From a virus (Duplodnaviria; Heunggongvirae; Uroviricota; Caudoviricetes), in the IMG/VR virus record IMGVR_UViG_3300025073_000880: 28,975 bases of DNA; one strand, 5' to 3'. How positions within the stretch are numbered: the first letter of the stretch is position 1; every line of letters begins with the position of its first letter. Positions 2,771-26,386 of this stretch are shown piece after piece. Under the pieces are notes generated by a model, which worked only from the letters and a program-made list of their open reading frames with translations, did no database searches and had not been told where the DNA came from. A program made the translations under genes and the position numbers.

Positions 2771-3811
2771 ATGCTTGGTGTCATCGGAGATTTACATTTC
2801 AAAGATAGTTTGGGCTATGCGGACTATATAAAAGATAGAAGAGAAAAAGAGAAAAAAGAAATCTTAGATTTTATCGTTGAAACACTAAGCGGTTGCGACA
2901 AAATTATTCTGATGGGTGATAATTTCAACACCAAAAATAATACCTCTAAAACCATTAAAGATTTTGTATCCTTTGTGGAACGCTTTAATGGCAAGGAGGT
3001 TTTTATATTGGCTGGGAATCATGAAAAATTTGGCGATGGTAAAAGTGCCATTGATTTTATGAAAGAATTAAAAAGTAAAGCTGACTGGCATATCATTACA
3101 ACTGAACCATTAACCGTATCATTACACGAGAAGCAACTACTTTTTGTTCCCTATTATTCTAAAAATGAATTGGGAGTAGGAACAAACGAAGAAGCTGCTA
3201 ATGTTATGATGGATATAATCAAATCTCAAGTCGCACCTCAAAAAACATCAAACATGCTATTTCTTCATCAAACAATATCAGGATTTGATGCAGGTGGGAC
3301 TCTCACGGATATGTTTAATGAAATAGTTTTACCTCAAAAAAAATTAGAAAAAATATTTGAGATTATTGTGTGCGGGCATATACATAATCCATCTGTTTCA
3401 GGTAAAACATTAATGACTGGAAGTGTATTTACAAATGAGGTTGGGGAACATGAAAAATTTATTTATATAATTGATGAGAAAACCTACAAAACTACACACA
3501 TAAAACTGCCATGCAGACCGATAATAAAGATTGAAAACCCATCCATAAATGATTTAAACGGTATTGACCCTCAAAGTATTGTAAAAGTGGTTTTAACAAA
3601 AAAAACAAAAGACATTGAAATTATCCGTTCGAAATTGGACTCATTTGCCGCTCATTTGCTTGTTGAACAATACCCAAATAAAAGAAAAAAAATTGATTTT
3701 GGAAACAATCTTCTTGACTTTAATATTGTTGACCTTTTAAAAACTTATGCTAAAGAAAGGACTGTTGATGAAAAAAAACTTCTTCTTGCATGGGATATGA
3801 TTAAAGATTGA
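2771..3811 (+). CDS. sbcD: SbcD/Mre11-family metallophosphoesterase nuclease (T4 gp47-like)
   Basis: GDLH, MGD, AGNHE, FLHQ and CGHIH motifs; cognate SbcC two genes downstream. Confidence 0.9.
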   Translation: MLGVIGDLHFKDSLGYADYIKDRREKEKKEILDFIVETLSGCDKIILMGDNFNTKNNTSKTIKDFVSFVERFNGKEVFILAGNHEKFGDGKSAIDFMKELKSKADWHIITTEPLTVSLHEKQLLFVPYYSKNELGVGTNEEAANVMMDIIKSQVAPQKTSNMLFLHQTISGFDAGGTLTDMFNEIVLPQKKLEKIFEIIVCGHIHNPSVSGKTLMTGSVFTNEVGEHEKFIYIIDEKTYKTTHIKLPCRPIIKIENPSINDLNGIDPQSIVKVVLTKKTKDIEIIRSKLDSFAAHLLVEQYPNKRKKIDFGNNLLDFNIVDLLKTYAKERTVDEKKLLLAWDMIKD

Positions 3812-3897
3812 AAGGATTTAAATTATAGCTTTTGGTCACTTTATAAATGTAAAATCTTTATAAAAAATATCGGTATCAAGGCTAATAAAAAAAATAT

Positions 3898-4434
3898 ATG
3901 AGTAACGTTATAGGCCTTGATTTATCTTTAACAGAGACTGGGGTTGCAATTATTAACAGCAATAAACTAGACCCAACACTCATTGAAATAAAATCAAAGC
4001 CAACAGCTATTAAAACTCCTATAAATGAGCTCAAAAGAATACTTGGAATAAAGAATTCAATCATGGATGTAGTTAAAGGTAGCGAAATAGACATAGCAGT
4101 AATTGAAGGCTTAGCCTTTATGGCAAAAAACACAACTTCATTAATACAATTATCAGGACTTAACTATATGATTAGAGAGGCCTTGTATAATTTAAGTATA
4201 AAATTCGTTATAGTAGCCCCAACACAATTAAAAAAATATATAACAGGCAAGGGTAATTCCCCAAAGGATACAATGATGCTTGAAACATATAAGCGTTACG
4301 GCCAATCGTTTACAAGCAATAATCTTTGTGATGCCTTTGGGCTTGCAACTATTGGTGTTAATTTGCTCCACCAAGATAAAAAAATAACCATTCCACAAAA
4401 AGAAACCATTAAATTATTAACCCCACAATTATGA
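3898..4434 (+). CDS. Phage RuvC-like Holliday junction resolvase
   Basis: VIGLDLSLTETGVA, AVIEG, VAPTQLKKYITGKGN and NNLCDAFGLA motifs. Confidence 0.85.
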   Translation: MSNVIGLDLSLTETGVAIINSNKLDPTLIEIKSKPTAIKTPINELKRILGIKNSIMDVVKGSEIDIAVIEGLAFMAKNTTSLIQLSGLNYMIREALYNLSIKFVIVAPTQLKKYITGKGNSPKDTMMLETYKRYGQSFTSNNLCDAFGLATIGVNLLHQDKKITIPQKETIKLLTPQL

Positions 4435-4781
4435 CAGAAGGAAAAAAAAATCTTAAAGGTTTTTCGCAAATAATGAAATCAAGAGATACCTCTCAATGCC
4501 CACACTGTAACAAAGAAATTTATATTTCGATATCTAGTATGGTTCCGATTATATCATCTATTATTACCCCTGACACAGCCAAAGAGGCTAAAGAGATTGT
4601 TAAAAAATTTATAGATGGTTCAGCGTTTAAGAACCCCGAAGAAAAACAACAACGGTTAAGTTGGCTTAACGATGAAACTACAATTATTGACCCAGAAGAT
4701 GTTAAAAGTTTTCTTGACGATGTGGCTAGGAATTGTATAACCACACCAAAACTTGATGATATTAAAGACAAAAAAGAATAA
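4431..4781 (+). CDS. Hypothetical protein with one CxxC (CPHC)
   Basis: ATGA overlap with the resolvase stop; stop 2 nt before the sbcC start. Confidence 0.7.
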   Translation: MTEGKKNLKGFSQIMKSRDTSQCPHCNKEIYISISSMVPIISSIITPDTAKEAKEIVKKFIDGSAFKNPEEKQQRLSWLNDETTIIDPEDVKSFLDDVARNCITTPKLDDIKDKKE

Positions 4782-4783
4782 AC

Positions 4784-6901
4784 ATGTTAAATATTAGCCA
4801 AATACATCTTAAAAATTTTATCAGTCATGCGGATACTAAATTAAATCTAACTATTCCGCAAAAGGTTTTAATTGACGGAAAGTCTGGACATGGTAAATCA
4901 TCAGTTATAGATGCTTTCATTTGGTGTTTATATGGAAGAAGTAGAGCTGACAACAGGTCTCTTATAAGGCGAGGGGCTGAGCGAGCAGAAGTGTCTGTTG
5001 CCTTGATTGATGGTCAAACAAATGATGAATATAAAATAACAAGATCAATAACCAATGGTGGTAAGCATGACTTGACCGTAACCCACAAAGAAAAAAAGTC
5101 TTTCCTGCCAATAAAGGTTAATGGTGTTAAAAACATCCAAATGTTTATAGAGCGAGATTTATTAAAATCTTCATATCTTTTGTTTATAAATTCTATCGCT
5201 TACCCCCAAGATAACCAAGAAAATTTCGTAAAACAAACTGCGACCAAACGCAAGGAGATAATAATGGAAATGATAAAGGCGGAAGATTATGACACTTATT
5301 ATAATAAAACAAAAGATAAGCTTAATGAACTTAAAATTGCTCTGGAAAAAAATCTTTCTCGGATTGAATCATCCCAAAACACGATTAATACCTATAAAGA
5401 TATAGCGTCTGGTCTGAATGTTTTGTTGGCTGAAAAAAACAACCTCGAGAAACAATTAACCACTCTAAAAGAAAAGCTTTCAGAATTACAGATTAAGGTT
5501 GATGAAAAAAAAGTTTTAGATGCTACTATCAACCAAAAAAAGAACGAGTTGCTAAAAACCATTAAGGAAATAGAAATAAAACAGCTAGATATTGATAGCC
5601 AAAAGATGAAACTGGGAAGCCTTAACGGCATGGATATATCAAAAATGGAGGCTGATTGTGCTGGGTTGCAAGAAGATAAAGATACTTTAAAAATACTCCA
5701 AGCAGAAAGTTTAATCCTGTCAGATTGGTTAAACAGAAAAATGGCTGTTATGTCAAAAAAACCAGCAGAGGTTGATTTTGAAGAAGATATAAAAACGATA
5801 AACAAAACAATTATCGATTTAACCTACCAAAAAGTAACTATTTGTCCCGAGATACAAAAACCATGCCCACTTTATGATAAAGAAAGACAGGGTAAACTTG
5901 AAGAAAATAAAGTGTTGTTGAAAATAACCTACGATAAAAAGAAAAAACAGGCTGAAGATGTCAATGAATATATAATAAAATTAGCTGAGCTCGGAGACGA
6001 ACCCGTGGTGGATACAGAGAAAATTAATGCCCTTTCAGCCGTTGTCTCTAAGAAAGAAAAAATTTTTGCTGACTTTAATCGTCTTAAAACCACCAGAGAT
6101 GTTGATATCAAAAACACCCAAGAAATAATAGCCAAAAGCCAGGATGATTTTAATATCTTAGTCGGCTTAAAGGAAACAATATCTGAAGAGATAACAGGGA
6201 TAGAGTTAAAAATAAAAGACTTAGAATCGTTTAAGGTTGAAGCGTCTAATGTTGAGCTGAATATTTCAACAGCGAACACAGATATGCTTGATGTTGTAAA
6301 CAAAATAGCTTCTGCTGAAAATGCTAAAAAACTTGTTGAGAAAGAACAAGAAAATATAAATATTGTCACCAAAGAAAATGAATTGGTTGGGGACAACACT
6401 GAATGTTTAACACTTTTGAAAGAAGCCTTCAGCCCTACCGGCATTAAGGCGATTATAATTGATTATATAATCCCAAGGATGGAAGAAAAGATTAATGACA
6501 TACTTGGAAAGCTTTCGGATTTTAGAGTTCGTTTAGATACTCAAAAAAAAGGGTTAGGTAAAGATACTGTTTTAGAGGGGCTATTTATCAGCATATTTAA
6601 TGAACTAGGTGAAGAGTTTGATTTTGATAACTATAGTGGATCTGAAAAGATGAGAATTACCTATGCCATATCAGAGAGTCTAGCTTCAATCCAAAACTGT
6701 GGGTTTAGAATCCTTGATGAGTTCATCCATGGTCTTGACACAGAAACAGAAGAAAAATTTGCAAATATTATTTTACGACTTAAAAACGAAGTTGACCAAC
6801 TGTTTTGCATTACCCACATTCAAAGCATTAAAGATTTATTTGAAGAAAAGATTTTTGTTAAAAAAATAAACGGATTATCTTCAATTACGTATGGTTATTG
6901 A
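4784..6901 (+). CDS. sbcC: SbcC/Rad50-family ABC ATPase (T4 gp46-like)
   Basis: Walker A GKSGHGKSS, Q-loop YPQ, long coiled coil with central cysteine pair, signature YSGSE, Walker B ILDE, D-loop GLD, H-loop ITH. Confidence 0.92.
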   Translation: MLNISQIHLKNFISHADTKLNLTIPQKVLIDGKSGHGKSSVIDAFIWCLYGRSRADNRSLIRRGAERAEVSVALIDGQTNDEYKITRSITNGGKHDLTVTHKEKKSFLPIKVNGVKNIQMFIERDLLKSSYLLFINSIAYPQDNQENFVKQTATKRKEIIMEMIKAEDYDTYYNKTKDKLNELKIALEKNLSRIESSQNTINTYKDIASGLNVLLAEKNNLEKQLTTLKEKLSELQIKVDEKKVLDATINQKKNELLKTIKEIEIKQLDIDSQKMKLGSLNGMDISKMEADCAGLQEDKDTLKILQAESLILSDWLNRKMAVMSKKPAEVDFEEDIKTINKTIIDLTYQKVTICPEIQKPCPLYDKERQGKLEENKVLLKITYDKKKKQAEDVNEYIIKLAELGDEPVVDTEKINALSAVVSKKEKIFADFNRLKTTRDVDIKNTQEIIAKSQDDFNILVGLKETISEEITGIELKIKDLESFKVEASNVELNISTANTDMLDVVNKIASAENAKKLVEKEQENINIVTKENELVGDNTECLTLLKEAFSPTGIKAIIIDYIIPRMEEKINDILGKLSDFRVRLDTQKKGLGKDTVLEGLFISIFNELGEEFDFDNYSGSEKMRITYAISESLASIQNCGFRILDEFIHGLDTETEEKFANIILRLKNEVDQLFCITHIQSIKDLFEEKIFVKKINGLSSITYGY

Positions 6902-7316
6902 AACACAAGTAGACACTAAAAATGAGTTACAAATGTATATTATGCTCGTTGATGTATTTGACCCTTTGAATCGACGCAGGGAGGAAAACATTGAAGTTGT
7001 TTTTAGTGATGATTTTAATATTGTAATAACAGGGCTAAAAGCAAAATATACCTTAAATGGTTCACCATTTGTGATTAGAAAACTTAGTAATGTACCAACA
7101 GAAACACTACTAACAGCTATCAGTAAATCAAAAAACACCCATCAAACTAAAACTGCAACCATAACCAATAAGAAAAATAATGAATCAAAAGAGCAATTCA
7201 TTTATAATCTCCAATATGTTGCCGATAAATACAAAAAAATTTTGACCGTAACTGACCTAAGGGCTGTCTACAATATAGTAAAAAAGATTACATCTAAAAT
7301 AAAAAAATCCACATGA
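6891..7316 (+). CDS. Hypothetical protein
   Basis: 141-aa ORF overlapping the sbcC end and ATGA-coupled to the next gene; no motif recognised. Confidence 0.65.
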   Translation: MVIETQVDTKNELQMYIMLVDVFDPLNRRREENIEVVFSDDFNIVITGLKAKYTLNGSPFVIRKLSNVPTETLLTAISKSKNTHQTKTATITNKKNNESKEQFIYNLQYVADKYKKILTVTDLRAVYNIVKKITSKIKKST

Positions 7317-7561
7317 ACATTTCTTTTATTAAAAAAAATGAACCATCATTAGTATTCAGACATAAAATAGATACTATTTTTGAAGGAACACCAATTGAAA
7401 TTGAACCTTTAACCTTAACAGTTGGAAAGTGTCTTATAAAAACATTTAGGCTTGCACCGTTTTTATATTCAACCTGTGTGTTTAATGGAATGAGTATATG
7501 CTGTGGGTTTAATACACCAAGTGAAGCAAAAGATTTCGCTTTAAATGTAAACAATCTATGA
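7313..7561 (+). CDS. Hypothetical protein
   Basis: 82-aa ORF with ATGA overlaps at both ends. Confidence 0.6.
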   Translation: MNISFIKKNEPSLVFRHKIDTIFEGTPIEIEPLTLTVGKCLIKTFRLAPFLYSTCVFNGMSICCGFNTPSEAKDFALNVNNL

Positions 7562-8124
7562 AAGAAAAAAAGCTTTTTAAGCCTGACACTTCTCTCTTAA
7601 AACGTTATGTCGGCTCACATAGTAAACAAAGCCGTTTAGCTGAAAGCTCTGATATTGAAACAATAAAAAAAGATTCAACCGATATGTTCCAACTTTTATA
7701 TTTACCATACGGTCATTATAAGGGTGGTTATGCTATAGCTCATCCTCAAATAAATAAAACAGACCCAATTAGGTTTTTTGTCACAATAGACCAAGATATT
7801 ATAATCAACCCTACCATAATTAAACACACAAATGCCTTTGTTAATTCGGATGAAGGATGTTTGGACTTCCCTAATGAAATAATGGTTACTGTTCAAAGGT
7901 TTAATAAAATAACAGTTAAATACCAAGAACTTAATCTCATTAACGATAATTTTATAATATCTGACACAAAGACAAAAGAACTTTCTGGGTTTGAGGCTAA
8001 GGTTTGGCAGCATGAAATTGATCATCTTAATGGTGTAAATATTATGTCAAAAGAACATCACGCTATAAATAATATAAATAAAATAAAAAAAATCTATGGA
8101 AACCCAACAAGAACAAAAAAGTGA
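7558..8124 (+). CDS. def: Peptide deformylase
   Basis: Motif 1 GYAIAHPQ (variant), motif 2 EGCLD, motif 3 QHEIDHLNG. Confidence 0.93.
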   Translation: MKEKKLFKPDTSLLKRYVGSHSKQSRLAESSDIETIKKDSTDMFQLLYLPYGHYKGGYAIAHPQINKTDPIRFFVTIDQDIIINPTIIKHTNAFVNSDEGCLDFPNEIMVTVQRFNKITVKYQELNLINDNFIISDTKTKELSGFEAKVWQHEIDHLNGVNIMSKEHHAINNINKIKKIYGNPTRTKK

Positions 8125-8892: not shown

Positions 8893-11800
8893 TCACCTCA
8901 TATTCTTATATTTGTTCCAGTCCATTTTAGAACTACTGTCATCAGTAGTTATTTTTTTATACCCAGACATATCAATACCAGTTTTACTGCTAGAACCTGA
9001 CTCGGTTAGAATATCATTTATTATTTGAGCAAGCTGTGAAGAACCTGGACCACCAAGCACAGACCCTAATGCACCAAAAACTTTTACCGCTCCTTTTATT
9101 TTTGTTTTTTTCTTTTTGCCAGTTAATAATGATTGTAAACCTTCAAGCACATCATCGAAAGACCTAATCACAGGAACTGGACTACTTCCGTACGTTAATG
9201 ATGAAATAATGGACCCAAGCATCGGTATGTTATTTGTAGAGTTTTTTAGGATACTTTTAAGCACGGTTTCATTCTCAACATTTTTGTCTGTGATAAGAGA
9301 CATTACCCATTTACTAAATCGTCTAGTAGCCTCTTCAAACGCACTTGTAACTATAAAAAACCAAATTAAACCAGAAATAGCCTTTTTATAATCACCTTTT
9401 TGTATGCCCTCATACCAAACTTGTCTTTGTATATTTGACCACCGATGAAGTAAAAAGCTTTGAAATGTTAAGATTGTTTTATTTATAGACCGATTATTGG
9501 CCAAGCCAAAACCTGTAGAGATGGCTAGTGGCTGGTCTTTATAGTATGAAGACCCTTGGCTGTCACGCATTAATTTATTAGCTTTTGCTAAAATGGTAGG
9601 GTTAGGGTTTGAAAGATTAATCTCTATCCCGATTTCCTTAGCAAGTTTCATATACGCCCCAGCTGCAGCTGTAGACCTCATTAGTCCATCCATTACCTGT
9701 AATGGTTTCATTCCTGATTGCTGTATTTTACCCCATAATTTTTCATCAAACTCTCTAAAAGCAATATCATCGCCAACTGCGGCTTTTATTTCAGGGAAGT
9801 TATTCATTATAAAATTTCGCCATTCTTTTGATGTAGCAATTTTATATGCTCCTTGTGAAGCCCAATCAACACCAATGGTTGCAGCTGCATCTGAAAACGA
9901 TGATAATTGGATTAACGCTGAAGATAATCTAAAACCTAAAACCCCAGCTGTCATATTTCTTCTTACCCAATCTAATCCTTTAATCCTTTGAAAATTTTGG
10001 ACACCACCTTTTCTAGCCATTAAGTCCAAATACTCGCTCCATGCGGCTTGACCAACATCACCAAAATGCTCTTTCATTTCTTTTGATTTTACAATCTCAG
10101 AATACATTTTTATATCACGACCCATGGATAGGGCGTATGCAACATCATCAATGTGCCGCAAGAAAACCTCTTTGGCATTGAGGCGTAGTGGCATATCACT
10201 GACATCTTTACGGCTTTCAACAAATGATTTTTCGACAAGTTTTGTTTGCCTTTGGGCAGCAGCATCTAAAACATTATCATTCCCAAATTTTTGCTGGATT
10301 TCAAAATCAGACATAGCTTCAAAGTCAGAAAAAAATGTCATATAGCTTTTAACCTCTTTCACATCAACATTGAACTCTTCCCTTGCCCATCGTTTTATTA
10401 AAGGGTACGTTTTAGCGTTTGTTTCAACAATGAAGTTATATAGCTCCATTTCGCCTTCTGTTAACTTAATTGATTCAATATATTCCCTTGAAAGCCTATT
10501 GTTCTCAACTAACCTCTGCATACCACCTTCTTGTTTTGAAATAGCATAAATACCAACATTTTCAAAACTGTCTTCCAGTAGATGTCGTCTTTTAATAATG
10601 TCTTCAAACTTTTCAACTATTTCAATATTGAAGTTTAAATAATTACCGTAATCAGCGTCTAGCGTTTCTTTCATTGGCACCATGCCAGTTATTTCAGCCA
10701 AAAGGTCTATGGAAGTAAGCCCAACATTTGTTTTTTGAAGATAATTGCGAAGACCTATATACCTATCAGCCCAAGCTCTTTTTGTTCTGTTTGCAAGTTG
10801 TTCTTTGGTAAACTTTTTTCTTGAGTTTATTGGGGCCTCTGTTTCCAGTAGAGCCTGTTTTTTTAATACTCTCTCTTGAATATATATTGCGTTTCTATTG
10901 ATAAGATTAAGTTTCCCCAAATTGATTAAAAGCTCAATTTGACGCTGTATGCCTTGAAGCTGAGATAAGGTAAGTTGATCCTTTGGTATTCTGCCCAAAA
11001 TTTCAAGCTGTCTAAGAACCCTATTGGGCATTTTCATTTCATGCCCAAGCTCGCTTTGCTTATCTAAAAATGCTTGAGTAGCCCTGAGTTTATCCATAAA
11101 CGCCTCTGTATGACGAGTCAATTCAAAAGTATCAAGAAGCTCTTGGATTCTTTTTTGATATTCGACATCAATTTGTTTACTACTAGCAATGTTCTTAGCT
11201 GTTTTTTTAAGATTATTAATAGCCTCTTCAAATTGTATTTTTTCAGAAAGAGTGTCTATCCTAGAAAAAAGCTTTATCGCACCTTTAATAGTGTTAACTT
11301 TAGATAACCCAGATAAAACTTTGCCACGAGCTGAAATGGGAAGATATGTATTGGCATATTCAACAACACGTTTTTTGGCAGAAACCGCAGTTAGTTCTTT
11401 TTGTTTAAAAAATCCGATTAAAGCATTTTTAGCCTCTCGTCTTTTTATTTCTTTTTTGATATTTACCTCTTCACTTTTGATAGCCTGAGCATCAGCCTTA
11501 TCAAGAATCTTCAAAGCAGCAACAATGGTGTTTGTTTTTCTTATATCAGACAAAAAGACACCCTGATCCTCTGACGGGACATTCCTTTTAATATAGGAGA
11601 TAATGTTTTGTTTTATTCTATCAACGCTTGCATTTTCAGCCTTTGCGTCACCCACTATTCTAGCCTTAGCCTCAGCCTGACCTGCCACATAGCTTATCTT
11701 TGAGCTTTTAGCCATGGCTCGTATCCTACTTCTCAACAAAACATCTTCACGACTACTGACAACGTTAGCTGATTCTGGTGCAAGCCCAACTGCCCTCAAG

Positions 11801-14800
11801 CCACGAATACCCGGGATACCTTCAGTTAAAGCTTTTACGGCAGTTGTTTTCTTTTCTTTAGATTTAGATTTGATTTTTATAAAATCCTGTTTGGCATCAG
11901 CAAACTTTTTACCACTAGCTTTAAATGTAGGAGCTTCACCTTTTATTTTAGCTTTAATTTCAGGAGTTAATTTTATCCCTTGCTGGGTTTTTTTCTTGGT
12001 GGAGATGTCATATGTTTCTCCGTCTTGTAATAAAACCTTGTTCCCTTTTAATTCATAAGGGGTCAGTACTTCACCATCAGGAATTTTTACCTTATTGCCA
12101 TAGACATCAGTCGCAGGGACATCTCTTTTGAGTTTAATGTCAGGATAAGTTTTCATTATATCGTCAACCGTCATCCCAACGGCCCCTCTAAGCGTTTCAG
12201 CTGTCTTTTTAGTAGGCATTTCTTTAATCGCTTTTATGGCGGTTGCTTTATTTGCCCTTGCCGTAATTGTAGGAAGTTTTTCTTTTATGGCTGTAACTAT
12301 CGTTGGTTTTTTAGGCTTCTTTTTAACCTCTTCGGTTAATGTTTCAGTTTCATAATCTGTAGTCTGTTCGCCAATTCTTTGGTCTGTAATAAAAATTGGC
12401 GAATTAAGCTTATCCTCTGATTCATAAACATATATTTTTTTACCATCAAGAGATTTCAAAGCTGAACCTAAATATTTAGCATCGAAAGCCAACCTTTCTT
12501 CTCCGACTTTTATTGGCATTATCAATACGCCATTATTCGCCTCACCTGGATTGGTAGAAACACTTGACGATACTGCTGGGATGGCAATAGTTTTATCTAT
12601 ATCTAACTCATTATTTTTAACAGTTACCGAAAGCAATAACTCTCCGTCCTTCTTGTCAATATAGACATTATTATTTACAACCTTTTTGGCTAATGGGAGT
12701 AATTCTTTTATGGCGGAAGAAAGGCGACTGCCATCAACTGCCTCAACCGTTTTATATCCACGTAATATTTGTTTATAATCTGGGTATGTCCCTTGGATTC
12801 GTCTAACAATAACCTCGCCATTTTCTCCACTAAACTTAATTGTATTTTCACCAACTGAAATGCTACACATATCACCAACAGCAGTTAAGACTTTTGATAA
12901 TTTAGTTGGATTAGACACAATAATATCAACATTATCAGCTGATACAACATTTGATTTATTAATAAAAAGCCTATAGGCATCAGTGCTTACAACCGTCATC
13001 GCCCCATCAGTTATGTTTATATTTATCCCAGATAACTCTATTCTATTATCTTTTTCGTTCATGTTTAAGGTGGCTTTTTTAATAATATCTGAAAACTCTC
13101 TTGAATCTATTGATGTGGCAACAAGCTCAGTTTCTTCACTCGGGGTGGACGGAAAATCTTCTGGGCTTAATTTTGTTTTTGTTGCGTTCTTACCAACAAC
13201 TTGGTACATCCCATCTTTTAAATCAGATTTTACATCAACAAAAACCTCAAGATCAGTCACCTGTAAACGACCATTGGAAACGCGAGCCTCTGATAATATT
13301 GGAATATTTTTCTTCTTACTTCCTATAGCATTAATAATATTAACATTGGATAAAGGCTTTGATTTTAACGTTTTTACTTTTTGGCTTTTAATGGCTTCTA
13401 AAGCTGTCTGTTTTTGGGTGCCATCAAATACTTTTTTTTCTGGTCCGGAAATCTTTGGCTTACTAATCTTAAATACTTTTTCTAAATAGGTGTCAAATTT
13501 ATTTTGGTCAAACTCTGGTATAGATAACTCTTTGCTTGGATTATTCCATTTTGCTGGCAAAAGCGATGCTGGTGACATCCCAAATTGTCCTTCGGTTTCA
13601 CTGATTGCACCTGCATAATAACCATCAACACTTCCGTCAGTGTTTCTTTTTGTGAGCACAACTGGACGTAAAATGCCCGTCGGCATTTTTTGCTGATATA
13701 TTTCTCCTGGATTAAATTCCCCAGCACCGATTCTTGCATTTGTTAACATTTGTCTGTCTGCCTCCGTTTTTTCATTTGCAGAAAATTTTTCCTTTTCTTT
13801 AACACCCTTCTCTGCAACAAAAACATCATAAAACTCAGCAATGGTCATGCCTACATCTTTTTTGATTTGTTCCTGTATCCTTTTTGCTGTATCTCTCTTT
13901 GTTAAATTTTGCTGTACCAACTCAGCGTTGAACATTTCAACAAACTCTTCCTTTGTCAGGTTTTCTTTCTTTGCCTTTTCAACAAATTCTTCTATCTCAG
14001 GAGAAACGTTCTTTGATACATCTTCAACTGTAAGACCAGGGGTGAGCTGTTTTACAAAACCCTTAAATTCTTCTCTCATTTCAGGATGACTCACATATTG
14101 AACAACCGTGTCCATGCCAGAACCACCCAAGAGCCCCCCTGCAAAACTCATAACAGACCTAGTCATAGCCTCATCCCAACCCAAATCATCCCTAAATGTT
14201 TTTTCTGTAGCTAATGTTACAGCTTCTTGTAAAACCTCAGTCCCACCTTCAGTCAAACCAGATCCAGCTATCCCCAAAAGTCTTTTGGTGAGACTAGATA
14301 CAAACTTATTTTTAGCCGACCCCAATATCTTTGACGGGACTATTCTGTCTAATAAAGAAACCAAAACACCGGCATAAATACCCTTTTTGGTCGCAGTATC
14401 AGGATCAACGCCTTTAGCCTCAGCCATATCCTTTATGTCGCCAGCTGTACTCCCAGCAACAACCGCAGACCCAAAGACAGGATTTATTGCGTACATCCCC
14501 AAACTAGCTATAACACTTGGAGCCAACTCAAGAAATGTTTCCGTAATATGCTCCGGTGAAAACTTTTCTGAAAGAGAGGCATTTTTCCACTCATCTGACG
14601 GCTCGAAAGCTTTATGGCTATTAATAGTTTCAAACCATTGTTTTATTTTTTCTTGTGGTAAATTGTCTTTATTGGCTTCAAATACAGCATTCCACTCTTC
14701 AAGTTTCTTTTGTCTTTCTTGTCGTTGTTTTTCCGTTCCTATTTTGGCTTCAAAACCCGTGCCTTTTATATAAGATGGTAACGTATCACCAGCCTTAATT

Positions 14801-15369
14801 TGCCCCATTCGTTTTGTAAGAGCATCCACGAAAAAATCAAATGATGTAGATACCATCCCACCAGCAAGCAACCCTGTCCGTGTAAGAAACTTGCCGTAAT
14901 CATCCACTTTGGGGCTAATGCCCAAGCCAGGAGTTAGCATTTTAGCAACTGTTAATGGTGATTCTTTCACTATTGGCTTATCCACAACCTTTTTTTCAGT
15001 AGAAGAAAGCGGTGATGTGTATTTATCCATTATGATTTTATACCGTGCGAATGGAGAAAGTTGTTCCTGAGTTTTAGATGTTGGAGTTACGGTCGTATAT
15101 TTTAAATCAGGAATAATACGTAAAAGCTCTGTAGTTGTTTTCCTCGGACCAGAATATAAAACAGTTGGTTTTTTCTCTGATTCTTTCTTCAAATATTCTT
15201 CAGTCCTCTCTTGAGCCTTAGGGTCATAAAGCTCTTGAGCCCCAGAATTTTTTTCCTTTATGTATTTATAGGTATTATAAGCACTCTCTATAAGACTATC
15301 GCCAGAGAGATTTTTTGCCGTTGTTATAAAACTACTACCTATTTTCTTTAATGAGTCTAATAATGCCAT
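8893..15369 (-). CDS. Giant (2158 aa) putative internal virion/DNA-ejection polyvalent protein containing a DnaN (beta-clamp) domain
   Basis: Last and largest gene of the virion operon; Gly/Ala-rich hydrophobic N-terminal segments (GLTEGGTEVLQE, FAGGLLGGSG); long helical C-terminal half; internal clamp motifs. Confidence 0.75.
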   Translation of the reverse strand: MALLDSLKKIGSSFITTAKNLSGDSLIESAYNTYKYIKEKNSGAQELYDPKAQERTEEYLKKESEKKPTVLYSGPRKTTTELLRIIPDLKYTTVTPTSKTQEQLSPFARYKIIMDKYTSPLSSTEKKVVDKPIVKESPLTVAKMLTPGLGISPKVDDYGKFLTRTGLLAGGMVSTSFDFFVDALTKRMGQIKAGDTLPSYIKGTGFEAKIGTEKQRQERQKKLEEWNAVFEANKDNLPQEKIKQWFETINSHKAFEPSDEWKNASLSEKFSPEHITETFLELAPSVIASLGMYAINPVFGSAVVAGSTAGDIKDMAEAKGVDPDTATKKGIYAGVLVSLLDRIVPSKILGSAKNKFVSSLTKRLLGIAGSGLTEGGTEVLQEAVTLATEKTFRDDLGWDEAMTRSVMSFAGGLLGGSGMDTVVQYVSHPEMREEFKGFVKQLTPGLTVEDVSKNVSPEIEEFVEKAKKENLTKEEFVEMFNAELVQQNLTKRDTAKRIQEQIKKDVGMTIAEFYDVFVAEKGVKEKEKFSANEKTEADRQMLTNARIGAGEFNPGEIYQQKMPTGILRPVVLTKRNTDGSVDGYYAGAISETEGQFGMSPASLLPAKWNNPSKELSIPEFDQNKFDTYLEKVFKISKPKISGPEKKVFDGTQKQTALEAIKSQKVKTLKSKPLSNVNIINAIGSKKKNIPILSEARVSNGRLQVTDLEVFVDVKSDLKDGMYQVVGKNATKTKLSPEDFPSTPSEETELVATSIDSREFSDIIKKATLNMNEKDNRIELSGININITDGAMTVVSTDAYRLFINKSNVVSADNVDIIVSNPTKLSKVLTAVGDMCSISVGENTIKFSGENGEVIVRRIQGTYPDYKQILRGYKTVEAVDGSRLSSAIKELLPLAKKVVNNNVYIDKKDGELLLSVTVKNNELDIDKTIAIPAVSSSVSTNPGEANNGVLIMPIKVGEERLAFDAKYLGSALKSLDGKKIYVYESEDKLNSPIFITDQRIGEQTTDYETETLTEEVKKKPKKPTIVTAIKEKLPTITARANKATAIKAIKEMPTKKTAETLRGAVGMTVDDIMKTYPDIKLKRDVPATDVYGNKVKIPDGEVLTPYELKGNKVLLQDGETYDISTKKKTQQGIKLTPEIKAKIKGEAPTFKASGKKFADAKQDFIKIKSKSKEKKTTAVKALTEGIPGIRGLRAVGLAPESANVVSSREDVLLRSRIRAMAKSSKISYVAGQAEAKARIVGDAKAENASVDRIKQNIISYIKRNVPSEDQGVFLSDIRKTNTIVAALKILDKADAQAIKSEEVNIKKEIKRREAKNALIGFFKQKELTAVSAKKRVVEYANTYLPISARGKVLSGLSKVNTIKGAIKLFSRIDTLSEKIQFEEAINNLKKTAKNIASSKQIDVEYQKRIQELLDTFELTRHTEAFMDKLRATQAFLDKQSELGHEMKMPNRVLRQLEILGRIPKDQLTLSQLQGIQRQIELLINLGKLNLINRNAIYIQERVLKKQALLETEAPINSRKKFTKEQLANRTKRAWADRYIGLRNYLQKTNVGLTSIDLLAEITGMVPMKETLDADYGNYLNFNIEIVEKFEDIIKRRHLLEDSFENVGIYAISKQEGGMQRLVENNRLSREYIESIKLTEGEMELYNFIVETNAKTYPLIKRWAREEFNVDVKEVKSYMTFFSDFEAMSDFEIQQKFGNDNVLDAAAQRQTKLVEKSFVESRKDVSDMPLRLNAKEVFLRHIDDVAYALSMGRDIKMYSEIVKSKEMKEHFGDVGQAAWSEYLDLMARKGGVQNFQRIKGLDWVRRNMTAGVLGFRLSSALIQLSSFSDAAATIGVDWASQGAYKIATSKEWRNFIMNNFPEIKAAVGDDIAFREFDEKLWGKIQQSGMKPLQVMDGLMRSTAAAGAYMKLAKEIGIEINLSNPNPTILAKANKLMRDSQGSSYYKDQPLAISTGFGLANNRSINKTILTFQSFLLHRWSNIQRQVWYEGIQKGDYKKAISGLIWFFIVTSAFEEATRRFSKWVMSLITDKNVENETVLKSILKNSTNNIPMLGSIISSLTYGSSPVPVIRSFDDVLEGLQSLLTGKKKKTKIKGAVKVFGALGSVLGGPGSSQLAQIINDILTESGSSSKTGIDMSGYKKITTDDSSSKMDWNKYKNMR
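12379..13353 (-). other. Embedded DNA polymerase III beta sliding clamp-like domain (aa about 673-997 of the giant protein)
   Basis: DnaN motifs in canonical order: NIPILS, TDLE, EDFP, RIELSG, VSTDAYRL, RRIQGTYPDYKQIL, AFDAKYL, SPIFI. Confidence 0.88.
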
Positions 15370-17165: not shown

Positions 17166-17762
17166 TTATTTTATAAACTGTAAAGGATTTATATATTTAT
17201 TGAACGCATTCATAACACGATAATCGAGATGTGAACCAGTCCCTCCGCTTAAAGAATATACACTCCCGCTTACCCCCATTCGCCCAATCTCAGACCCAGC
17301 GGTTACTGGTTCATTAATAGCCACAAAAACTTTATCCAAATGGCTATATCTATGCTTATTCCCTTGAGGGTCGGTTACTATAACATAATTACCGTAACTA
17401 GATTTGGCAGAATTACTACCCTGCCCAATACGCACATCCGTGACAACACCCTCGGTAAATGTTGGGATTGATGTCCCAATTTTATTTGCGATATCAACCC
17501 CTGGATGAAATTTTTCATATCTAGTGCTCCCACCATAAGGAGTTGTTACTGACCCGATGCTAGACAAACTTGTGGGGACACTTTGGCGAGGCATAGCACT
17601 CCCACTTTGCATTGGTTGTTGCTTGATAATATCAACAAGACCTGAAAATTTTTCAGTTGGTTTATTAACAGGTAAACTTTCACCAACATCTTTTGCTGTT
17701 TGGATAAATGGTTTTATTGCAGAGGCATACCCCCTATAAGTTGTATTTTCTTTAAGTGCCAT
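17166..17762 (-). CDS. M23/LytM-family peptidase, probably a virion-associated peptidoglycan hydrolase
   Basis: FHPGVDI (HxxxD), YGNYVIV, YSHL, GSHLDY (HxD variant of HxH), INP. Confidence 0.85.
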   Translation of the reverse strand: MALKENTTYRGYASAIKPFIQTAKDVGESLPVNKPTEKFSGLVDIIKQQPMQSGSAMPRQSVPTSLSSIGSVTTPYGGSTRYEKFHPGVDIANKIGTSIPTFTEGVVTDVRIGQGSNSAKSSYGNYVIVTDPQGNKHRYSHLDKVFVAINEPVTAGSEIGRMGVSGSVYSLSGGTGSHLDYRVMNAFNKYINPLQFIK

Positions 17763-21125: not shown

Positions 21126-23198
21126 TCAAGTTATTAAAGCTTTAGACACTTTTATCTTGGTTGAAATAGTATTGCTTGTCCCTCTGTCGGGTGTGTTCGA
21201 ATATCTAGCCATAGCGTAATCCGTTCCAATTCTTACTATCCCCATTGGATATTCAATCGTAGTAGTCCCTGCACAAAACCAATCATCAATGTTATCTACG
21301 TCTGCTCCTGTTGAATCTTCTTCATAAATAGTTCCAGTAGAGCCAACCGTGAAAAAGTTTGTTTCATTACAGAATAATCCATGACCACTGTTTCTTATCG
21401 TATTAGCTGAAACCGCTGAATATGTCGCAGTAGTCCCTGATATGGTGCAAGTATAAAGTTTAGAATCCCCTGCGGTAGCTGTATCACCATGTCTCATTAC
21501 TATATATAAGCTTGTACCATTTGTAGCTAGATACCCACATCTTTTAATCCCACCTGGAAAACTAGCTAAAGTCATTGCTGTCCCATTAGTTAAATCCAAA
21601 TCATACCTTGTTAACATAGCTGAAGCCGTAGTGCCGTCATACCAACTAACATAGACATAACTTCCAATCACCACTACCCCGCCATAAGTCGCTCCAGCAT
21701 CAACCAAAACTTGGTCGGACGCTCTAGGAATATAACTGCCAAAAGTATTCTTCCTAATTCTATATAAATATAAAGAAGAAGCCGCTGCAACTGAATACAC
21801 AAAATACCAATTATCGGGATGTGTTTTATATTCTGAGCACATCTGCATGGTATATGTAGCAATTTGGAAATCACTTATTTCAACAGGTGATTGAAGCTCA
21901 ATTGTGGCTGTTACATCACTTCTAATTTCCCCCGCTAAGCCAATAGCATTACGAATACCATTATAATTCTTAGCTAAGCCGTAAGCTTCAGCATCAGTTA
22001 ATTCTCCGCTGAAAATCTGTATAAATTCAATCGTTCCAGCAAAACTTACAGTGGTTAAGTTATAATGTTTGCCGATAGTCAAGTCACTAGTAGCGTTGGT
22101 AATATCTGTCGTTGTAGTATCAGAAACTTCAGTATTATCTTCCTGTCCGTCTATATATAACCGTATTTTATTATCAGTGGCATCACGAACAGCAATTACT
22201 GAGTGTCTATTGCCGTCAGCAATATTAGTAGTGCCAGTAATACTGATAACGGTTGATGAATCTTTAATTACAAAGTTAACCCGACCAGCCGATGAATCAC
22301 TCATCCTCAATAGCATAAATGTGTCTGTGACGTTTGTCGCACTTCTAGTATCAATGATAACGCCTTCTGTTAACATTGATGTTGAAATAACCATGTTGAT
22401 AAAGAATGAATCGCTAGTAGCAAATTGTAATTCTGTTGGTAAATTATCTAAAAATAAATACTCCGTATTAGCATCAAATAAAATTGCCGATCCCGTAATA
22501 CCAGTGGTATAACTTGCTCCATAAATCGTTAAATGATTTTCATATGATGTTGAATCATATGCAATTGTTCCCGTGTTTTCATCAAATGACAAGTGGGAAA
22601 TTAAACTAGCTTTTTTCGGTAAAGCCTGATTGATTTCAGGATTGACTGCTGTTATTATTCCGCTTGTTGCATCAAACTCAATATATTGGCTAGATAAATC
22701 ACCCATATATCCGCTTGCCCCCAACTTCCAAACACCCGTCTTCAAAATATAAGCCGTTGCATTATCATTATCAGCCACAAAATCAACAACATTAGCGCCA
22801 CTCCACATGTTCCCCGCAGAATCCACGTGCCAAGAATCGGAAGATAATTCATTCGGGATATCTAAACTCCCACCAACGATACCACCAGTACCTACAAATA
22901 ATTTAACGCATTCAATGTATCCCCCAGCCCCATTTATATAAAAGCCACGAGCTTTGGGCTGATAGTTCCTAGACTTTATCCATGTGTTAATCCAAACATC
23001 ACTAAAAGAATCGCCTTCAACGGCACCTGAACTCATTTGGCTTGGGCTATTAATAGAAACACCTGTATTTATATTCTGTGCCACTTGAGAATCCAAAGAA
23101 TCTAATGCTTGATAAGCATTTTGTTCTGTCAGAGTAGACGCTCCGCGCTCTAAATCTGAACTATATGGTCTGTCTATTTCAAGATATGTTCTTGCCAT
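21126..23198 (-). CDS. Tail/receptor-binding protein with LamG (concanavalin A-like) domain and beta-rich C-terminus
   Basis: LISHLSFDENTG...AILFD...IRLYIDGQ...LTIGK...FAGTIEFIQIFSGELT at about 21975-22604; the N-terminal SRNYQPKARGFYING segment resembles phage tail-tip linkers. Confidence 0.75.
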   Translation of the reverse strand: MARTYLEIDRPYSSDLERGASTLTEQNAYQALDSLDSQVAQNINTGVSINSPSQMSSGAVEGDSFSDVWINTWIKSRNYQPKARGFYINGAGGYIECVKLFVGTGGIVGGSLDIPNELSSDSWHVDSAGNMWSGANVVDFVADNDNATAYILKTGVWKLGASGYMGDLSSQYIEFDATSGIITAVNPEINQALPKKASLISHLSFDENTGTIAYDSTSYENHLTIYGASYTTGITGSAILFDANTEYLFLDNLPTELQFATSDSFFINMVISTSMLTEGVIIDTRSATNVTDTFMLLRMSDSSAGRVNFVIKDSSTVISITGTTNIADGNRHSVIAVRDATDNKIRLYIDGQEDNTEVSDTTTTDITNATSDLTIGKHYNLTTVSFAGTIEFIQIFSGELTDAEAYGLAKNYNGIRNAIGLAGEIRSDVTATIELQSPVEISDFQIATYTMQMCSEYKTHPDNWYFVYSVAAASSLYLYRIRKNTFGSYIPRASDQVLVDAGATYGGVVVIGSYVYVSWYDGTTASAMLTRYDLDLTNGTAMTLASFPGGIKRCGYLATNGTSLYIVMRHGDTATAGDSKLYTCTISGTTATYSAVSANTIRNSGHGLFCNETNFFTVGSTGTIYEEDSTGADVDNIDDWFCAGTTTIEYPMGIVRIGTDYAMARYSNTPDRGTSNTISTKIKVSKALIT

Positions 23199-25276: not shown

Positions 25277-26386
25277 TTAAACATTAACTTCGTCTAAAAT
25301 ATCCCAAGAGTCTTTCCCCCCATCTTGTTTTGACGACACAAGCTTCATAGTCGCAATTTTTTCTCCGAATGATCTTTTATATTCCGCACCATCAACCCTC
25401 CCAAGTTTTGGAGCAGCTCTATAAAGCATATAGTCAATAACGCAATAATGGTTATTATCAGGTAAATCAATAGTATCGTAATAAGATGTAAGCTCCGCAG
25501 CTTTTGTGTTATACCTTAACCTAAATGTTATTGACGATGTTATCGCAGGAGAAAACCCAATATACCCGCCACGTATATAATATTTAGTTCTATTCGCAGA
25601 AACGCTATTCCAATCGTCAATCTCTGAAAGCTTTATTGTTTCAAGCTCTAAATTACTAGTAGAGTTATAAACAGATAAGGCGTTACTAAAATTTGTGGGG
25701 ACAGCATATTCAGATGTCCCTGATACAGCAGAAATGTCATAATATGTTTCTGCGGTATAATTGTTTGTTACAAGGTTTAACTCATTCCTAGCGATAGCAT
25801 ATGCTTCATTCAACCAATAAAAAGCATCATCATCAGAAACAAGCTGTCTTTCTTTATTGTTAAGATGGCTATAAAAACTATCGAGTATTCTCTGAGCAGA
25901 ATTCAAAGCAAACCCTGCATACGGTATAGCATTAGAGTTAGCACTCGCATTGGTTGTTGTTGAATTATAAAAAACAAACCAGCCATATCCTGTACTATTA
26001 ACGCTATCATCAGCTTGTGTGTAAAAAGAGTCAGCCTGAATATCTGTATAACCAGTTACAGGGCTTGTGGCTGAAAATGTTGCCGTTGTTGTATGATAAA
26101 ACCTAACCTGGTTATAAGGCAAAATGGCAACCTTTGTACTTTCTGAATGTGAAAATTTAGTTGCAGCCACTAGAGTCAAGGTATGAGTTGAAGTGTTTAT
26201 GCTCTGAATTTGGACTATCTCTGAACTTTCCTGCCCAAATCCTCCAAGCAGAATATAGTCGTTAGCATCAAAGCCAACGCTGTTTGTTACAACAACACTT
26301 GAAACACCTGATAAATAATTTGTATTTAGGAATGAATATTTCGCACCTGTGAGCAAATCTCTATTGTCTGCTTTTAATGTAATCAT
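25277..26386 (-). CDS. Head-tail adaptor (P22 gp4/T7 gp11-like) with N-terminal beta-rich extension
   Basis: C-terminal half with WLNEAY...VSGTSEYAVPTNF...YIGFSP...LRY...DLPDNNHYCVIDYMLYRA pattern. Confidence 0.65.
   Translation of the reverse strand: MITLKADNRDLLTGAKYSFLNTNYLSGVSSVVVTNSVGFDANDYILLGGFGQESSEIVQIQSINTSTHTLTLVAATKFSHSESTKVAILPYNQVRFYHTTTATFSATSPVTGYTDIQADSFYTQADDSVNSTGYGWFVFYNSTTTNASANSNAIPYAGFALNSAQRILDSFYSHLNNKERQLVSDDDAFYWLNEAYAIARNELNLVTNNYTAETYYDISAVSGTSEYAVPTNFSNALSVYNSTSNLELETIKLSEIDDWNSVSANRTKYYIRGGYIGFSPAITSSITFRLRYNTKAAELTSYYDTIDLPDNNHYCVIDYMLYRAAPKLGRVDGAEYKRSFGEKIATMKLVSSKQDGGKDSWDILDEVNV

Follow-up and report, generated by a model that had tools for sequence, protein, structure and literature searches.

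A phage-domesticated beta clamp with a shortened domain I and a relocated pocket strand within a giant phage protein

Replication and repair in bacteria centre on the beta clamp, which is also an antibiotic target. One documented phage strategy against it is a binding inhibitor: Gp168 of phage Twort (7EVP) sits as a plug in the DNA channel of the host clamp (PMC11139829). Phages also carry full-length DnaN homologues or processivity factors (phrog_947; BFVD entries such as A0A7G5BAQ6). A third group relevant to this study is that of the phage polyvalent proteins, giant multi-domain proteins encoded in late-gene context, whose proteases are proposed to release cargo domains; clamp, PCNA, DnaN and processivity are not mentioned in the main text of their description (Iyer et al. 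2017, PMC5512222). A limited literature search retrieved no relevant paper on mimics or permuted forms of the clamp, or on clamps within polyvalent proteins. Here, we describe a DnaN-derived module that resembles each of these systems in part. Like Gp168, it is a phage protein module predicted to act on the clamp system, but it is the phage's own clamp derivative instead of a plug. It shares phage-borne DnaN homology with the full-length phage clamps, of which the best-scoring matches are standalone proteins of 354-461 aa with 11-18% identity, a comparison made by size and identity only.

The window analysed, i.e., the whole 28,975-nucleotide stretch of a Caudoviricetes virus (IMGVR_UViG_3300025073_000880), contains on the minus strand a structural operon comprising an SU10-like adaptor (25277-26386), a LamG-domain protein (21126-23198) and an M23 peptidase (17166-17762). 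Its last gene (8893-15369, minus strand) encodes P0001, a giant protein of 2158 aa that matches phrog_9880 and that we consider a putative injected polyvalent or ejection protein. Genes for SbcD, a RuvC-like resolvase, SbcC and a peptide deformylase (2771-8124, plus strand) converge on the giant gene. P0001 has the giant multi-domain architecture and the virion-gene context of polyvalent proteins, and its relatives carry the LPD38, MPTase, MTase and ART domains reported for this class (PMC5512222). Unlike the described polyvalent proteins, P0001 lacks HExxH and LPD38: the HExxH motif is absent downstream of the clamp module, and LPD38, MPTase and the other known polyvalent domains were not detected in P0001, though present in its relatives. 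The C-terminal third of P0001 resembles viral protein clusters, one of which has LPD39 in 55% of its members; a PDB sequence search with the C-terminal half returned no match.

Residues 677-996 of P0001 (12382-13341, minus strand; hereafter module residues 1-320), flanked on both sides by Lys-rich linkers, match DnaN in Pfam, PHROG and PDB sequence searches. The AlphaFold2 model of this module, built on an alignment of 86 family rows, has a pLDDT of 96 and a pTM of 0.92, and its comparison with DnaN (VIA) gave Z scores of 26-26.5 and an rmsd of 2.5-2.9 over ~290-293 residues. By homology and by fold, the module is a DnaN relative. As in bacterial DnaN (PF00712/PF02767/PF02768; E. coli 2POL, B. 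subtilis 4TR6), the model forms a three-domain crescent with a complete domain II, the pocket residues and the PIL, TDLE and DFP motifs; unlike DnaN, the module is ~38 aa shorter in domain I, its terminal strand is permuted, its dimer residues are re-keyed and it is embedded in a virion-module polyprotein. These data show that the module is a phage-domesticated beta clamp, in which the DnaN fold has been retained while half of domain I was deleted, a strand was moved and the dimer residues were replaced. It departs from DnaN in its domain content, its terminal strand and its interface, and as judged from sequence its pocket probably works in a DnaN-like manner.

Domain I (13150-13341, minus strand) consists of alpha1, the PIL motif, beta2-beta3-beta4, beta5, a G-K turn, a short beta8 strand and the DFP linker, the IPIL and EDFP motifs starting at P0001 residues 689 and 737. 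The span between the prolines of PIL and DFP is 51 residues in P0001 and 50-57 in 85 of the 86 family members (the remaining row, poorly aligned, has 74), as compared to 88-97 in 45 cellular DnaN proteins (90 in E. coli); domain I is therefore short by ~38 aa. The original prediction, made from the nucleotide sequence of the window, had placed about 50 aa between IPIL and EDFP and proposed that part of domain I is missing, and both points hold family-wide. The model does not contain three complete domains, since beta1, alpha2, beta6 and beta7 are absent from domain I, and the deletion is spanned by a new beta5-beta8 hairpin, GMYQVVGKNATKT (13174-13212, minus strand), with the family pattern G-x-Y-x-x-v-G-K-D/E/N. 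Standalone family members begin at a median of 20 residues (range 14-30) ahead of PIL versus 27 in DnaN. Of the ring interface, alpha2 is gone, whose residues K74, I78 and L82 are a major part of the canonical dimer contacts (PMC12269063, PMC11139829), but the C-terminal part of the interface strand beta8 (E. coli ~103-110, or ~105-109 by register) is kept as module residues 52-56. The module shows how far clamp domain I can be reduced.

We found ~85 relatives with the same anatomy among 1.84 billion representatives, and later ~100. Because these ~100 phage relatives, which have diverged to roughly 21-40% identity, share the short domain I as well as the relocated strand, neither feature is due to chance or to an assembly error; an assembly artefact was rejected on the basis of this family-wide conservation. 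Most relatives are internal modules of proteins of 1,100-4,500 aa that also bear LPD38, methyltransferase, ART, Zeta toxin, GNAT or RadC domains, and 40 of 68 large relatives have an HExxH metallopeptidase motif 86-191 aa downstream of the module. One close relative is likewise encoded by the last gene of a structural block, on a 35-kb phage contig. More than 10 relatives are standalone proteins of 314-402 aa; the three examined are whole genes inside their contigs. The standalone forms lie among small genes, away from structural modules, and no polymerase or loader gene adjoins them. One of them, gp79 of phage Tunturi_4 (XOB77407.1; L004:5929-7014; 361 aa), resembles the P0001 module in its short domain I and permuted strand but, unlike it, is not fused; it is annotated only as 'processivity factor' and is not discussed in PMC11924767. 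The gp79 gene adjoins a DNA methyltransferase gene in this cultured acidobacterial siphophage. In a tree from which domain I and the moved segment had been left out, 97 short-domain-I rows and 47 DnaN fell on opposite sides of a branch with 99% local support; fused forms were scattered among standalone ones. A search of GTDB genomes, by a narrow pattern and hence weak, returned no relative.

The second alteration concerns the C-terminal strand of DnaN. The last part of domain III, beta5-alpha2-beta6-beta7 (AFDAKYL to SPIFI; 12382-12495, minus strand; motifs starting at P0001 residues 961 and 990), ends the module with no terminal MP strand, and the alignment of the model with DnaN covers E. 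coli residues 15-355, ending directly before that strand. The corresponding segment, GVLIMPIKV (module residues 271-279; 12505-12531, minus strand), equivalent to DnaN 358-366, lies internally between domain III beta4 and beta5; its LIMPIK motif starts at P0001 residue 949 (12525-12508). The original prediction had noted the absence of an IMP strand after SPIFI and the presence of LIMPIK before AFDAKYL, exactly at this position, and had suggested a permuted strand that preserves the pocket; the following data agree with it. (i) In the AlphaFold2 monomer model, LIMPIK is not a disordered loop but an ordered strand (271-274 and 277-279, local pLDDT 94-96). (ii) Column by column, the moved strand follows the DnaN 360-365 profile, with M in 97% versus 89% and P in 88% versus 100%, and the columns after MP agree as well (I/V/M/L, then R/K). 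(iii) Among 108 family rows, the (I/V)MP strand is only internal in 86, only terminal in 7 and in both places in none, the remaining 15, of which most have a degenerate internal strand, failing the strict pattern; among 158 cellular DnaN, it is internal in none and terminal in 154. (iv) The moved strand is coupled to the pocket, by K278-A122 (rank 11 of 52,003), I274-Y290 (rank 55), M275-T120, I277-Y123 and I277-I192.

The residues to which this strand is coupled belong to the pocket for clamp-binding motifs, whose subsites I and II are listed in PMC11139829. In the module, they are supplied by the complete domain II (12799-13128, minus strand), where R100, L103, T120, Y123, R124 and L125 correspond to E. 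coli R152, L155, T172, H175, R176 and L177; by the domain II-III linker (12766-12792, minus strand), with P187, Q191 and I192 (E. coli P242, R246 and V247); and by domain III, with D287, Y290 and P315 (E. coli N320, Y323 and S346, the latter being P in most species). These pocket residues are conserved throughout the family and nearly all of them in the P0001 copy, in which N320 is replaced by D. The moved strand very probably fills the beta8 slot, which would leave the pocket intact. As the pocket residues are both conserved and coupled to the strand, the permutation very likely rebuilds the pocket, and the relocation is a true sub-domain permutation in which the peptide pocket is very likely kept. 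The module is thus a natural case of the clamp fold being circularly permuted at the sub-domain level. Such a strand order could arise by duplication of the last beta-alpha-beta-beta-beta unit followed by deletion.

It had also been proposed that moving the strand frees the C-terminus for fusion. Permutation as a consequence of fusion was rejected, as counter-examples exist both ways: standalone members such as gp79 are permuted, and P0143, P0117 and P0147 are fused, yet have a terminal MP strand beyond which the chain continues. Together with P0083, P0101, P0102, P0160 and P0121, these three proteins combine a short domain I with a terminal MP strand. Such unpermuted short forms occur at several places on the FastTree tree and are either intermediates or reversions.

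We then compared the two faces through which DnaN subunits assemble. The canonical dimer residues I78, F106, I272, L273, R103, E298, E304 and R269 are not conserved in the module. In the interface helix of domain III (12688-12732, minus strand), E213, P216 and L217 stand for E. coli R269, I272 and L273, and in the family I272 is replaced by P in 91%, L273 by Y or F in 90% and R269 by E in 62%. In the edge strand beta4 of domain III (12574-12603, minus strand), the DnaN acidic cluster has been replaced: E304 is I/V (I/V252) in 82% and a new lysine, K250, is present in 86%, the net charge of this strand being +0.3 in the family versus -2.4 in DnaN. Since family members have lost or exchanged the dimer residues, they seem unlikely to share an interface with host DnaN. 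The suggestion that the module acts as a chain terminator, docking onto a single face of a host DnaN subunit so that the ring cannot close, must be weighed against these changes. Although the crescent is DnaN-like overall and one edge strand is kept at each end, the domain III face is unlike that of the host (I272P, L273Y/F, R269E, E304I/V and the beta4 charge) and domain I is devoid of K74, I78, L82 and R96. With both faces re-keyed, capping of host clamp subunits is highly improbable.

Covariation links these two faces. Domains I and III are far apart in the crescent, and their strongest coupling, N52-L217, ranks second of all 52,003 pairs and first of the 6,138 pairs between the two domains (z 8.6, the next being 4.9). 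It came first in 8 of 8 jackknifes and exceeded the maxima of all 8 row shuffles (4.8-6.5), in an analysis that rests on ~100 sequences and mostly on this one pair. As a control, the known inter-subunit pair F106-L273 ranked 10 when the same method was applied to 86 cellular DnaN. Tree-based contrasts over all branches gave 13.1 same versus 4.0 opposite changes (median p 0.049), similar to the result for a control pair within one domain, and the test restricted to well-supported branches, with 5-6 pairs, was underpowered and not significant. The 52-217 pair mirrors the canonical head-to-tail contact and arises within the family itself, which further argues against the chain terminator. Both tips of the crescent are near-invariant in new residues (G44 100%, Y46 98%, P216 91%, K250 86%). 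These data are moderate evidence that the module is not monomeric and associates with itself, head to tail, through a re-keyed interface.

The module had originally been suggested to be either such a terminator or a monomeric, non-ring pocket mimic, and a monomeric decoy that cannot oligomerise and soaks up host clamp-binding proteins, perhaps especially the loader subunit delta or clamp-targeting toxins, is a possible but rather unlikely explanation. It would account for the deletion of alpha2, beta6 and beta7 and for the I272-to-Pro change; in E. coli, the clamp dimer becomes weaker or falls apart when I272A/L273A, L82D or R269 mutations are introduced, delta binds the clamp monomer about 50-fold better, the pocket is intact and the module is embedded in a 2158-aa chain. 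However, near-invariant new tip residues are not expected of exposed, unused faces, and the top cross-domain coupling mirrors an inter-subunit contact, which makes the monomer doubtful. The P0001 copy carries a rare N52/L217 combination, found in 1 of 86 sequences. Because this combination is rare, N320 is changed to D and HExxH is absent, the P0001 copy may have drifted or may stay tethered.

We propose, with about even confidence, that the module, whether injected or made early, is a private clamp derivative. It would self-associate without engaging host DnaN and would divert host clamp-binding proteins from the host replisome, probably onto phage DNA. As suggested by context, it would arrive in the cell alongside the DNA, carried by an injected polyvalent protein, and standalone forms would be made early. 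The injected-cargo reading is supported by the relatives, since these are polyvalent proteins with HExxH downstream in 40 of 68. Through the beta8 remnant and the re-keyed domain III face, copies of the module would join head to tail in a private interface from which host DnaN is excluded, yielding a dimer ring or an open arc. The pocket would then bind the host loader delta, Pol III alpha, Pol I, ligase, MutS/MutL and Hda, and the module would draw these proteins off the host clamp, probably onto phage DNA. If true, a clamp derivative that is carried by a phage and combines an intact pocket with an interface of its own would represent a takeover route different from that of a binding inhibitor. 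In a bolder form of the proposal, which we regard as unlikely, the modules would be a family of minimal sliding clamps, orthogonal to those of the host and widespread among phages, with ten inner helices instead of twelve, a permuted pocket strand and a private dimer key. Injected along with the genome, they would encircle phage DNA and bring in host enzymes for replication and repair as soon as infection begins. Direct testing is possible because the cultured pair Tunturi_4/Tunturiibacter carries a standalone member.

Retention of the pocket, of the R24 equivalent (K/R in 67%) and of net-basic inner helices, together with the self-interface signal and the DNA polymerase encoded by Tunturi_4 itself, would also suit a working processivity ring that serves phage DNA, is placed there by the host loader or in the course of ejection, and has no anti-host role. 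Nevertheless, one of the six inner helices is lost, the standalone genes are not beside polymerase or loader genes and delivery as virion cargo fits host takeover better than bulk replication, so that such a ring appears improbable.

Tandem copies of the module were found in three polyproteins: P0066 (1109-1753), P0071 (1141-1822) and P0147 (2633-3217). One copy of each tandem is degenerate or truncated at the pocket strand; the tandem copies are possible single-chain pseudo-dimers, and we count them in favour of the proposed self-association. Some second copies have lost the MP strand, as would be expected if the module were a relic or a spacer with a structural role in the ejection apparatus and had no activity resembling that of a clamp; yet pocket residues are conserved over roughly 21-40% identity and standalone, non-structural versions exist, leaving this explanation barely credible.

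Two further small modules are present in P0001, at residues 1036-1152 (about 11914-12264, minus strand) and 536-632 (13474-13764, minus strand). Each shares 52% identity with part of a different giant protein (P0034 and P0053), and we regard both as putative mobile cargo.
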